Positions 24,587-27,461 of a stretch of DNA of 64,000 nt are shown one piece after another. The notes beneath the pieces were generated by a model that saw only the letters and a program-made list of their open reading frames with translations, was not told the DNA's origin and searched no databases. Each line of letters opens with the position of its first letter. Position 1 is the first letter of the stretch. This DNA is from Escherichia coli (GTDB taxonomy: Bacteria; Pseudomonadota; Gammaproteobacteria; Enterobacterales; Enterobacteriaceae): assembly GCF_030384885.1 (NCBI RefSeq), contig NZ_CP128613.1; one strand, 5' to 3'. The position numbers and the translations under genes are program-made.

Positions 24587-24670
24587 TTGTGATGTTGACC
24601 CTGTTATACTTTAGGTTGTGCTTTCCATTCACTAAAATTACGCGGATAATTCTTTCCTGAAAGAAATTAT

Positions 24671-24693
24671 CCTACACCTGTAAGAAAATCCGC
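24671..24693 (+). promoter_or_regulatory. EvgA-box-like inverted repeat upstream of ydeP
   Basis: CCTACA-CC-TGTAAGAA resembles recalled EvgA consensus TTCYTACA-N2-TGTARGAA; near-identical element upstream of safA. Confidence 0.55.
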
Positions 24694-24934
24694 GCACAAT
24701 TGAAGTCAGAGTCTTATTTTATATATTGAAAAGTATGTTAACTTAAAGACTATGAGAGATGATGCTTAACTTATCGCATTTATACTATTCTGTTATGTGA
24801 CGATAATGAGTTAAAAATAGAATGAGAGTAGCCCCCTACTCTCATATATCCAAATGGCCGATAAACCCATTATATATACTGCGCATCATCGCTATTACAA
24901 ATCCTAATAATTCATTTCCACACAGGATAAGCTG

Positions 24935-27214
24935 ATGAAGAAAAAAATTGAATCCTACCAGGGAGCTGCCGGTGGTTGGGGGGCTGTCAAATCTGTAGCG
25001 AATGCAGTCCGTAAGCAGATGGATATACGCCAGGAAGTGATTGCCATGTTTGACATGAATAAGCCAGAAGGCTTTGACTGTCCAGGATGTGCATGGCCAG
25101 ATCCTAAGCACAGCGCGTCATTCGACATTTGTGAAAACGGCGCAAAAGCAATCGCCTGGGAAGTCACCGATAAGCAGGTGAATGCCTCTTTTTTCGCTGA
25201 GAATACGGTTCAATCATTACTTACCTGGGGAGATCACGAACTCGAGGCTGCGGGGCGTCTCACTCAACCTTTGAAATATGATGCCGTCAGCGACTGTTAC
25301 CAGCCATTAAGCTGGCAACAAGCTTTCGACGAAATTGGCGCACGTCTTCAAAGTTATAGTGATCCAAATCAGGTTGAATTCTATACTTCGGGCCGCACTT
25401 CCAATGAAGCTGCCTTTCTTTATCAGCTTTTTGCCCGTGAATACGGTACCAATAACTTTCCCGACTGCTCAAACATGTGCCATGAACCGACCAGCGTGGG
25501 TTTGGCAGCGAGTATCGGCGTGGGTAAAGGGACCGTGTTACTGGAAGACTTTGAGAAATGCGATTTAGTAATTTGCATTGGGCATAACCCTGGTACAAAC
25601 CACCCTCGCATGCTGACTTCGTTGCGCGCTTTAGTGAAACGGGGAGCGAAAATGATTGCCATCAATCCTCTGCAGGAGCGTGGCCTGGAGCGATTTACCG
25701 CACCACAGAACCCGTTTGAAATGCTGACGAACTCCGAGACTCAATTGGCTAGTGCTTACTATAATGTGCGCATTGGTGGCGATATGGCGTTGCTAAAGGG
25801 GATGATGCGCCTGTTAATTGAGCGCGATGATGCTGCAAGTGCTGCGGGTCGGCCCTCATTGCTGGATGACGAATTCATTCAAACGCATACCGTCGGCTTT
25901 GACGAGCTACGCCGTGACGTTCTCAATTCCGAGTGGAAAGATATCGAACGTATTTCTGGACTAAGTCAGACACAAATCGCCGAACTTGCTGATGCATATG
26001 CCGCTGCCGAACGAACCATTATCTGTTACGGAATGGGGATCACTCAGCACGAACATGGTACCCAGAACGTACAGCAACTTGTCAATCTGCTGTTGATGAA
26101 AGGTAACATTGGCAAGCCTGGTGCGGGTATCTGCCCACTACGTGGTCACTCTAATGTACAGGGCGACCGAACCGTCGGTATCACCGAGAAACCGTCTGCC
26201 GAGTTTCTGGCTCGCCTGGGTGAGCGCTATGGCTTCACCCCACCTCATGCACCTGGACATGCTGCAATCGCCAGCATGCAAGCAATATGTACGGGGCAAG
26301 CTCGAGCATTGATCTGCATGGGGGGCAACTTTGCACTGGCAATGCCAGATCGGGAAGCGAGCGCTGTACCGTTAACGCAATTAGATCTGGCGGTACACGT
26401 TGCCACAAAGCTTAACCGCTCTCATCTGCTGACCGCACGGCATAGCTATATTCTGCCGGTTCTGGGACGTAGCGAGATTGACATGCAAAAAAGCGGTGCG
26501 CAGGCGGTAACCGTTGAGGATTCAATGTCAATGATTCATGCCTCGCGTGGCGTGTTAAAACCCGCAGGTGTCATGCTGAAATCAGAGTGTGCTGTGGTCG
26601 CGGGAATCGCGCAGGCAGCGCTCCCTCAGAGCGTGGTGGCCTGGGAGCATCTGGTGGAAGATTATGATCGCATTCGCAATGACATTGAAGCTGTGCTGCC
26701 AGAGTTCGCCGACTATAACCAGCGCATCCGCCATCCTGGTGGTTTTCACCTGATAAACGCAGCTGCTGAAAGGCGCTGGCTGACGTCGTCAGGTAAGGCT
26801 AATTTCATTACCAGCAAAGGGCTGTTAGAAGATCCCTCTTCGGCGTTTAACAGTAAGCTGGTCATGGCGACAGTACGCAGTCACGATCAGTACAACACGA
26901 CGATTTATGGTATGGATGATCGCTATCGAGGGGTATTCGGTCAACGAGATGTGGTCTTTATGAGTGCTAAACAAGCTAAAATTTGCCGTGTAAAAAACGG
27001 CGAAAGAGTTAATCTTATTGCGCTTACGCCAGATGGTAAGCGCAGCTCACGCCGCATGGATAGATTAAAAGTGGTCATTTACCCTATGGCTGACCGCTCA
27101 CTGGTGACCTATTTTCCAGAATCGAATCACATGCTAACACTTGATAACCACGATCCATTAAGTGGCATTCCTGGCTATAAAAGTATTCCGGTTGAATTAG
27201 AACCATCAAATTAA
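24935..27214 (+). CDS. ydeP: Acid-resistance oxidoreductase YdeP (molybdopterin, formate-dehydrogenase-like)
   Basis: 759 aa, matches recalled K-12 YdeP length and conserved position next to safA-ydeO. Confidence 0.9.
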
Positions 27215-27334
27215 TTCGCCTCCTCATTTCTTCTGCTGTCATCCGCACAGCAGAAGAATTCCTCATTGACCATTGTCGCGCAATTTACTCACATGTGCTA
27301 AATTAAACTGCTCGCTATAAGATATATACCTCTG

Positions 27335-27357
27335 CCTACAGCTGTAAGAAACTCCGC
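27335..27357 (+). promoter_or_regulatory. EvgA-box-like inverted repeat upstream of safA-ydeO
   Basis: CCTACA-GC-TGTAAGAA followed by CTCCGC, paralleling the ydeP upstream element. Confidence 0.55.
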
Positions 27358-27461
27358 TCAGTACTGAAGCACCAGTCCTATTTCCTCTTTTTTCCAGCCT
27401 GTTATATTAAGCATACTGATTAACGATTTTTAACGTTATCCGCTAAATAAACATATTTGAA

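Follow-up and report, generated by a model that had tools for sequence, protein, structure and literature searches.

A duplicated promoter module may carry the EvgA boxes of ydeP and safA-ydeO in Escherichia coli

Introduction

BvgA of Bordetella pertussis, which is known from the Pfha and Pptx promoters, is the homologue from which EvgA takes its name. EvgA is a response regulator of the NarL/FixJ type that heads the EvgA-YdeO-GadE acid-resistance cascade, while SafA links EvgA to PhoQ/PhoP. The best-studied direct targets of EvgA are ydeP and safA-ydeO, and their promoters, PydeP and PsafA, are common reporters of EvgS activity. The EvgA box, which we take to be the 18-bp inverted repeat TTCYTACA-NN-TGTARGAA, is found before ydeP, b1500/safA-ydeO, emrKY, yfdX, frc and yegR. 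Such a box may be compared with class I activation, which takes place from about -72, as in the case of CAP at -72.5. A study by Masuda and Church from 2003 (Mol Microbiol 48:699) is said to have combined EMSA with mutagenesis of the EvgA box, and one by Itou et al. from 2009 (Biosci Biotechnol Biochem 73:870) reportedly dealt with the targets of EvgA.

Direct binding of EvgA at the ydeP and safA promoters is stated in two reviews (PMC8147483; PMC9496106), of which the latter cites Itou 2009 and Masuda & Church 2003 for the direct targets and the former likewise refers to the literature (Itou 2009) for EvgA binding. Throughout the literature searched the EvgA element is described as 18 bp in length. 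The genes ydeQ-ydeP-safA-ydeO lie on the plus strand of a 64-kb stretch of E. coli DNA (hereafter the window, meaning the whole stretch analysed), and the features of their upstream regions are collected in Table 1.

Results

Exactly two copies of the 23-nt motif CCTACANCTGTAAGAAANTCCGC are present, one before ydeP (24671-24693) and the other before safA-ydeO (27335-27357), and both read on the plus strand without a mismatch; no further match with 3 mismatches or fewer is present on either strand of the 64-kb window, and there were 0 in 100 shuffles. A preliminary description of this DNA had placed a common motif upstream of both genes, which the two exact copies bear out, and had likened its inverted-repeat core to the EvgA consensus, from which each box indeed departs by a single mismatch. 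In K-12 this 18-bp repeat is also found before emrK, frc, yegR and, in two copies, yfdX. With a weight matrix derived from seven EvgA boxes of K-12, the next-best score among the ~64,000 positions is 9.9, against 23.4 and 24.7 for the two boxes. The ydeP box is kept in K-12 as well as in the L005 (divergent lineage) and metagenome alleles, the safA box is kept in all lineages compared, and the register of both boxes to the core promoter equals that of the other regulon members. The shared element is the known EvgA binding site itself, and this core finding is not new because the two reviews already name both promoters as direct EvgA targets, in keeping with the earlier proposal that EvgA controls both operons directly. 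A search for the box sequences in the full text of the literature returned nothing relevant.

The further similarity that had been noted downstream of the motif is real and was understated: aligned pairwise, the two upstream regions are collinear and gap-free over ~100 bp at 66% identity (66 of 100 positions, with the offset constant at 2664 nt) between the box and about 24772/27436. Its 5' edge is sharp and falls at the box, and the background identity per 20-nt window is 10-35%, mostly 20-35%. In the 79 nt 3' of the 23-nt motif, 46 of 79 positions are identical, compared with 21.9 +/- 3.8 in shuffled sequences, none of which reached 46 in 100,000 trials (P<1e-5). When the ydeP 79-mer is compared with the entire window on both strands, the safA copy is the best match and the next best attains 39; out-of-register offsets yield at most 31 identical positions, and flanks taken as controls from the wrong side of the boxes 15-26 of 85. 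Global alignment of the ydeP and safA regions gives z = 7.8, while z is below 2 for every other pair of EvgA promoters.

Both promoters have the extended -10 sequence TGTTAnnTT in common, and in ydeP, safA, emrK, frc, yfdX and yegR alike the distance from the box end to the start of a TAnnnT hexamer is 53 or 54 nt. The ydeP leader, which is defined as -178 to +10 and for which the in-vitro-transcription primer begins ATGAGAGATGATGCTTAACTTATCG (PMC11210196), has its 5' end 8 nt downstream of the hexamer. In K-12 this leader start corresponds to post-box position 66 and, with the start taken from the leader definition of PMC11210196, the centre of the ydeP box lies at about -74.5 relative to 24752. 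The corresponding safA start is predicted near 27415 from the shared register. RNA polymerase SELEX work predicts a different ydeP promoter, TTGAAG-16-TATATT (PMC3946193), and if this were the EvgA-dependent promoter the box would be situated near -57. As for other records of the ydeP start site, ydeP appears in the supplementary data of Kim et al. 2012 in a table of orthologues only. A comparison of 24000-28600 with Rfam yielded no RNA family.

The spacer between box and core promoter contains positions of two kinds. TCCGC and TGAAG are specific to the ydeP/safA pair, TCCGC being absent from the emrK, frc, yfdX and yegR promoters and the longer AANTCCGC from the other four EvgA promoters, whereas CA.AA is present in all six. 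The block directly 3' of the ydeP box is invariant in E. coli-type alleles and has three changes in the divergent L005 type, and the AGTCTTATTT block further downstream shows no variation among the seven orthologue and paralogue sequences, with its TC and ATT columns recurring in register in other EvgA promoters. Columns C9, A10 and G19 are common to nearly all EvgA promoters, and among five independent EvgA promoters there are 6 invariant spacer columns where 0.42 are expected (P<5e-5). These regulon-wide positions probably mark contacts, presumably those of EvgA and/or RNA polymerase. Neither the ~100-bp collinear homology nor the in-register regulon-wide spacer columns were found in the literature searched.

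The extended similarity was also looked for in other E. coli strains, where it is present: both modules occur at an identity of at least 90% in 5,317-5,369 of 5,426 complete E. coli genomes (~98-99%). K-12 also has them, and so does a lineage of ~84% identity, in which the boxes are kept. Nearly all of 75 metagenome loci retain the boxes, and the ydeP box is missing from two rearranged contigs of low coverage. All sampled lineages already carry both promoter copies. Across all seven orthologue and paralogue sequences, 40 of 77 post-box positions are invariant. Among Escherichia lineages, variation is lower at positions shared between the two promoters than at unshared ones, with 40/47 shared against 15/30 unshared positions being invariant (P = 0.0016), or 38/47 against 15/30 once the metagenome alleles are added (P = 0.006).

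Table 1. Promoter features upstream of ydeP and safA-ydeO; positions are those of the window
Feature	Position	Strand	Sequence	Remarks
Promoter module, ydeP copy	24671-24772	+		box, spacer, extended -10, start site and first ~20 transcribed nt
Promoter module, safA copy	27335-27436	+		ungapped match to ydeP copy
Primary EvgA box, ydeP promoter	24669-24686	+	ATCCTACACCTGTAAGAA	1 mismatch to TTCYTACANNTGTARGAA; weight-matrix score 23.4, second highest in window
Primary EvgA box, safA-ydeO promoter	27333-27350	+	TGCCTACAGCTGTAAGAA	1 mismatch to TTCYTACANNTGTARGAA; score 24.7, highest in window
Block directly 3' of ydeP box	24687-24699	+	AATCCGCGCACAA	contains AATCCGC and regulon-wide C9 A10. A12 A13
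Corresponding block, safA	27351-27363	+	ACTCCGCTCAGTA	
Candidate weak secondary EvgA dimer site, ydeP	24691-24708	+	CGCGCACAATTGAAGTCA	centre exactly 22 bp downstream of primary
Candidate weak secondary EvgA dimer site, safA	27355-27372	+	CGCTCAGTACTGAAGCAC	same register; score -4.2, top 1.6%
Conserved block at -35-region position (about -42 to -33), ydeP	24710-24719	+	AGTCTTATTT	regulon-wide T26 C27 .. A30 T31 T32
Corresponding conserved block, safA	27374-27383	+	AGTCCTATTT	
Extended -10, ydeP	24736-24744	+	TGTTAACTT	TGTTAATTT in K-12
Extended -10, safA	27400-27408	+	TGTTATATT	register as in ydeP; kept in all lineages
Leader 5' end, ydeP	24752	+	CTATGAGAG	A of the sequence; from leader definition in PMC11210196

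Discussion

Binding and activation by EvgA are established in the literature, and the arrangement of the two promoters suggests that phosphorylated EvgA binds as a dimer to the 18-bp inverted repeat centred near -74.5 and from there activates a sigma-70 core promoter with an extended -10 (TGnTAnnTT) and without a recognisable -35. We read PydeP and PsafA-ydeO as adjacent EvgA-activated sigma-70 promoters with the two elements as their primary EvgA operators. The features common to the regulon are the constant spacing between box and -10, the CA.AA columns (near -57 to -53) and the TC..ATT columns (near -40 to -34). In its combination of an activator centred near -74.5, a TGn-extended -10 and a poor -35, this architecture is reminiscent of class I activation at extended -10 promoters, and the ydeP/safA spacer could accommodate the C-terminal domain of the RNA polymerase alpha subunit (alpha-CTD). 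Unlike an UP element, however, the spacer contains the GC-rich TCCGCGC, and the literature searched holds no experimental evidence of alpha-CTD contacts of EvgA.

The preliminary description offered two explanations for the conservation beyond the core, a duplicated promoter module or contact with an additional co-factor. The former fits best because the similarity is collinear and gap-free, extends over the entire promoter as far as about +20 and is confined to this pair, while nothing specific speaks for the latter, AANTCCGC being particular to the two promoters. The similarity has defined edges, runs past the individual motifs and is not common to the other promoters of the regulon. On balance we favour the view that the two elements serve as primary EvgA operators within a promoter module that was duplicated and subsequently kept by selection, a history read from the alignments. 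The similarity past the 18-bp box would then amount to homology between entire promoters, as far as about +20, rather than to a longer operator; the module would have originated by local duplication before the compared Escherichia lineages split, and purifying selection would since have kept those positions that work in both copies.

No single-copy ancestor was seen: in Edwardsiella and Yersinia the likeness of the ydeP homologues is limited to the coding sequence and a box is lacking, and the promoter is therefore an Escherichia-specific addition. Formal proof of the duplication would require a single-copy outgroup, and none exists because both the ydeP/safA locus and EvgAS are confined to E. 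coli and Shigella (PMC9496106). Terminal repeats or traces of mobile elements were not found in the flanks of the module. The identity matrix reveals no excess of identity between the two copies within a lineage, which makes recent gene conversion unlikely, and dense shared constraint might in principle produce a similar identity without common descent. A scheme in which all EvgA promoters were copied from one module was rejected, since only ydeP and safA are globally similar (frc/yfdX z = 1.2).

The reading that survives best beside duplication, although it is doubtful, holds that the extension is a low-affinity EvgA site, in which case the strong repeat would nucleate, by cooperative binding, a second head-to-head dimer 22 bp downstream, at about -52.5. 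It is equally doubtful that this second dimer would reach the core promoter and that the conservation of CGC.CA....TGAAG would represent its site. The idea draws on BvgA, whose dimers occupy successive positions 22 bp apart, beginning at a strong site and running towards the -35, and whose weak sites are hard to predict from sequence (PMC7250471). EvgA promoters resemble those of BvgA in that a NarL-family regulator recognises a strong inverted repeat far upstream of the core promoter, with half-sites of the TTCCTA/TAAGAA type, and in ydeP and safA a weak box-like 18-mer is found 22 bp downstream, an interval equal to that between BvgA dimers (PMC7250471). The heptads of the BvgA site adjoin each other (TAAGAAATTTCCTA), whereas in the EvgA box they are reversed with CANNTG between them. 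The candidate in ydeP is the best-scoring 18-mer in the 45 nt after the box (post-box positions 5-22; score -0.1 to 0.9; top 0.36% of window positions) and its centre lies exactly 22 bp from that of the primary box, with the safA candidate in register; the columns C9 A10 and G19 shared by nearly all EvgA promoters also agree with such a site. However, these scores, near 0 or below, are those of a weak match when set against 23-25 for real boxes, they fall further in the divergent lineage (-5.4 and -7.9), and the register itself was picked after inspection of the data. In contrast to BvgA arrays, the candidate site is out of register in other EvgA promoters and was not found at that position in emrK, yfdX and yegR. 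A half-site weight matrix detected nothing above threshold, so that TC[CT]TA at positions 26-30 was rejected as a clear EvgA half-site. The ydeP candidate contains TGAAG (24701-24705), the same letters that form the -35-like TTGAAG of the predicted alternative promoter, and a natural ydeP allele has TAACG in its place (TTAACG). The 22-bp-spaced weak site is suggestive only, and within the extension a further EvgA contact, as opposed to one by a separate co-factor, is possible.

A broader and speculative model, which we consider unlikely, would combine these elements into a composite operator of ~45-50 bp in which the high-affinity repeat at -74.5 is joined by a cryptic low-affinity EvgA dimer site, placed exactly two helical turns further on (-52.5), and by fixed contacts in the spacer (CA near -57 and TC..ATT near -40) that connect it to the extended -10 promoter. 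EvgA would then behave like BvgA, and the regulon, which is young and E. coli-specific, would on at least one occasion have expanded through the copying of a complete module to a neighbouring operon.

It is improbable that a separate co-regulator, be it PhoP, RcsB or another factor, acts on ydeP and safA-ydeO only, with AANTCCGC...TGAAG as its operator. The block is pair-specific and invariant in the E. coli population, and PsafA is reported to be repressed by PhoP and under feedback from YdeO (bioRxiv 10.64898/2026.05.06.723403); in addition, ATCCGC-like words recur in the safA intergenic region and ydeP has an inverted CGCGGAT 41 nt before its ATCCGCG. Yet no motif for a separate co-factor was found in the extension among the PhoP, RcsB/BvgA-type and GAD boxes that were compared by eye. 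Neither a PhoP box (TGTTTA-N5-TGTTTA) nor a GAD box matches when judged by eye against its consensus, and a BvgA/RcsB-type arrangement, judged against the site in PMC7250471, fits at 2-3 of 7 positions in the second heptad; accordingly the RcsB/BvgA-type (TAAGAAnnnTCCTA), PhoP and GAD boxes were rejected. YdeO ChIP-chip identified seven sites, none of which is at the ydeP or safA promoters (PMC4222967). The similarity runs through the -10 into the transcript and well past any single operator, and one extra site therefore cannot explain the extension. That the similarity is a chance or compositional likeness of two AT-rich, intergenic promoter regions that share an EvgA box is scarcely credible, for although a local alignment with harsh scoring gives only z = 2.7 after the box, harsh mismatch penalties are unsuited to 60% identity, and the tests used instead, the in-register shuffles and the global alignment, refute it together with the window-wide search, the off-register offsets and the wrong-side flanks.

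Conclusions

With the boxes themselves already known, what is added here is modest, namely that two promoters in use as reporters are near-copies of each other over ~100 bp. Constructs or mutants that keep only the 18-bp box may not mimic native regulation, because the near-copies share the extended -10 and spacer blocks as well. The weak site phased at 22 bp would offer a cheap and concrete test of whether EvgA oligomerises along the DNA as BvgA does. The duplication, if true, would be a small example of a lineage-specific regulon recruiting a neighbouring operon.

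EvgA boxes upstream of ydeP and safA

The window comes from an E. coli chromosome, and its ydeQ-ydeP-safA region is a rare, divergent allele: 24400-27700 is 100% identical to strain 2013C-4282 and, in a comparison with some 5,400 E. coli genomes, is matched at ≥99% identity in only 18 and at 90-95% in 5,273. The pattern CCTACANCTGTAAGAAANTCCGC matches exactly at 24671-24693 and 27335-27357, which bears out the shared element of the preliminary description, and no further match occurs at up to three mismatches in the whole 64-kb window, with none expected by chance. The 18-mers ATCCTACACCTGTAAGAA and TGCCTACAGCTGTAAGAA each carry one mismatch to TTCYTACANNTGTARGAA, and K-12 carries the same inverted repeat in front of emrK/evgA, frc, yfdX (two copies) and yegR. 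A weight matrix derived from seven K-12 EvgA boxes gives the two window boxes scores of 24.7 and 23.4, and no other of approximately 64,000 positions scores above 9.9. The shared core is the known EvgA box, and reviews already list both promoters among the direct targets of EvgA (PMC8147483, PMC9496106); its earlier assignment to EvgA was correct, if not new. Masuda and Church are said to have discovered the 18-bp motif in 2003 along with EvgA gel shifts, and mutations of the repeat upstream of ydeP and b1500-ydeO reportedly lowered induction.

Ahead of the ydeP box, CGCGGAT (24640-24646) forms an inverted repeat with the ATCCGCG (24688-24694) that immediately follows the box, the two arms being 41 nt apart; the upstream arm is conserved in K-12 and in L005, a divergent lineage with a 12-nt insertion between arm and box. 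The safA intergenic region contains three TCCGC-like words (27242, 27353, 27439), and all lineages retain TAAGATATA ahead of the safA box. Read outwards from the box, CTTATAGT occupies exactly positions 12-19 both in the safA upstream flank (27313-27320) and on the evgA side of the K-12 emrK/evgA box (L002, 5543-5550).

Extent of the homology

At a fixed offset of 2664 nt the ydeP and safA regions are identical at 66 of 100 positions with zero gaps, the match beginning at the first base of CCTACA and ending near 24772/27436. Identity is at background upstream of the box (2-7 of 20) and again after about position 101. In the 79 nt after the 23-nt motif 46 positions are identical, compared with 21.9 ± 3.8 in shuffles (0 of 100,000 reaching 46) and 31 at most at out-of-register offsets, and the best match of the ydeP 79-mer across the window is the safA copy; the downstream similarity noted previously is thus present and longer than claimed. 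The extension is no peculiarity of the window strain, as it is also found in K-12 and in L005, a GTDB representative whose identity across the locus is only about 84%. Of 5,426 complete E. coli genomes, about 98-99% carry both modules at ≥90% identity. Among EvgA promoters the overall similarity is limited to this pair, with 50-52 of 85 positions identical in register versus 26-38 for other pairs and 15-26 for control flanks, and a global alignment z of 7.8 where every other pair stays below 2.

The ydeP-safA locus also appears at 99% identity in JARKOR010000108.1, a contig of a 'Candidatus Nanosynbacter' MAG, probably through bin contamination, and both promoter modules occur as partial copies in the 92.6-kb E. 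coli plasmid record NZ_CP147132.1.

Architecture of the core promoter

Genes and shared promoter elements; positions are numbered relative to the final base of the 18-bp box
Feature	Window coordinates	Strand	Position after box	Copy
ydeQ	23672-24586	+
ydeP	24935-27214	+
safA	27462-27659	+
ydeO	27734-28495	+
A.TCCGC.CA			1-10	both
TGAAG			15-19	both
AGTC(C/T)TATTT			24-33	both
Extended -10, TG.TA..TTAA	TGTTAACTT 24736-24744; TGTTATATT 27400-27408		50-60	ydeP; safA
TGA....GAT..TTAAC.T			first transcribed bases	both

The ydeP leader has been described as -178 to +10, with a transcription-template primer beginning ATGAGAGATGATGCTTAACTTATCG (PMC11210196). Its 5' end corresponds to position 66 after the box (window 24752), 8 nt past the shared hexamer, and the ydeP box centre therefore lies near -74.5; by the geometry common to both promoters safA transcription would start at about 27415. 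EvgA~P almost certainly binds the 18-bp box near -74.5 to activate an extended -10 promoter without a good -35. For ydeP an alternative core, TTGAAG-16-TATATT, is proposed by a simple promoter scan and likewise by an RNA polymerase SELEX study (PMC3946193), and it is ruled out as a promoter common to both copies because safA lacks a usable -10 at this distance.

The approximately 183-nt ydeP 5' leader contains a perfect 10-bp hairpin, ATGAGAGTAG-CCCC-CTACTCTCAT (24822-24845), of which K-12 and L005 have slightly altered versions. It matches no Rfam family, and on the minus strand it has a T-run after the stem and scores as an intrinsic terminator. The ydeP terminator hairpin (27228-27258; about 5294-5325 in L005) has a 12-bp stem identical in all lineages, and its 7-nt loop reads CATCCGC in the window versus ACGGATG in L005, nearly the reverse complement, as would be expected from loop inversion.

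Regulon-wide positions and natural variation

When six EvgA promoters are aligned on the box, a TAnnnT hexamer starts at position 53 or 54 in all six, C9 A10 and T26 C27 are likewise found in all, and A12, A13, G19 and A30 T31 T32 in five. Six of the first 48 spacer positions are invariant in five independent promoters versus 0.42 expected (P<5e-5), in agreement with a circular-shift control. EvgA promoters therefore have a fixed geometry and a few common spacer positions outside the box; TCCGC and TGAAG are confined to ydeP and safA among the six. Around the -10 and start site, K-12 ydeP (L001) and yegR (L003, minus strand near 8340-8360) have in common ATTTAAACACTA(T)GAGAG (17/18 identical, one gap; local alignment z = 4.2), offset by 5 nt relative to the box, which may reflect either an element that both start regions share or a trace of common descent.

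Of the 77 positions following the box, 40 are the same in all seven sequences compared, which represent the two promoters in three to four lineages. Among orthologues, positions that the two copies share are more often invariant (40/47) than unshared ones (15/30; Fisher P = 0.0016), and the pattern persists (38/47 versus 15/30, P = 0.006) with alleles from 75 loci recovered by scanning metagenomes with the invariant ydeP leader as anchor (17-19 ydeP and 15-17 safA alleles). E. coli-type alleles seen at least twice are uniform at positions 1-13 and 25-34. TGAAG is not untouchable, since one natural ydeP allele (at least four contigs) changes TTGAAG to TTAACG, keeping 4/6 matches to TTGACA. In two low-coverage metagenome contigs (L085, L120) unrelated sequence replaces the EvgA box and spacer before the ydeP leader, either by rearrangement or as an assembly chimera.

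Origin of the shared extension

Of the two explanations offered in the preliminary description, a duplicated promoter module is favoured. The adjacent promoters are probably copies of one module and, as there is no single-copy outgroup, duplication is argued from the collinear match, its sharp edges and its restriction to this pair rather than from phylogeny. No within-lineage excess of identity between the copies is seen in the lineages compared, which argues against ongoing gene conversion.

The most interesting alternative, a rather unlikely one, is that the extension holds a second, weak EvgA dimer site downstream of the primary box. The best box-like 18-mer within 45 nt after the ydeP box (positions 5-22) lies exactly 22 bp from the primary centre and ranks in the top 0.36% of window positions (top 1.6% for safA in the same register), the same spacing as at promoters of the EvgA homologue BvgA. 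There, starting from a strong upstream site, dimers line up at 22-bp intervals as far as the -35, and sequence predicts the weak sites poorly (PMC7250471). However, the candidate is a weak match and weaker still in L005; emrK, yfdX and yegR have no such site in this register, and a half-site matrix found no secondary EvgA half-site above threshold. The other earlier explanation, contact with a separate co-factor, is not supported, as by eye the extension fits no PhoP, GAD or RcsB-type motif, no PhoP box is evident at PsafA despite its reported repression by PhoP (bioRxiv 10.64898/2026.05.06.723403), and YdeO ChIP-chip gives no site at these promoters (PMC4222967). Small details are added to the known EvgA boxes: homology over 100 bp, spacer columns common to the regulon and the candidate weak site phased at 22 bp.

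The YdeP homologues of Edwardsiella (three loci, 85% amino-acid identity), Yersinia rohdei and others show homology confined to the coding sequence, with no EvgA box within 3 kb, and representatives of other Escherichia species give no match, save one divergent 'E. coli'. EvgAS and SafA are specific to E. coli and Shigella (PMC9496106), and judged from these comparisons the promoter is likewise E. coli/Shigella-specific. The coding-only homology in Edwardsiella and the lack of another Escherichia match suggest that ydeP was acquired by horizontal transfer and that its promoter was added in Escherichia.
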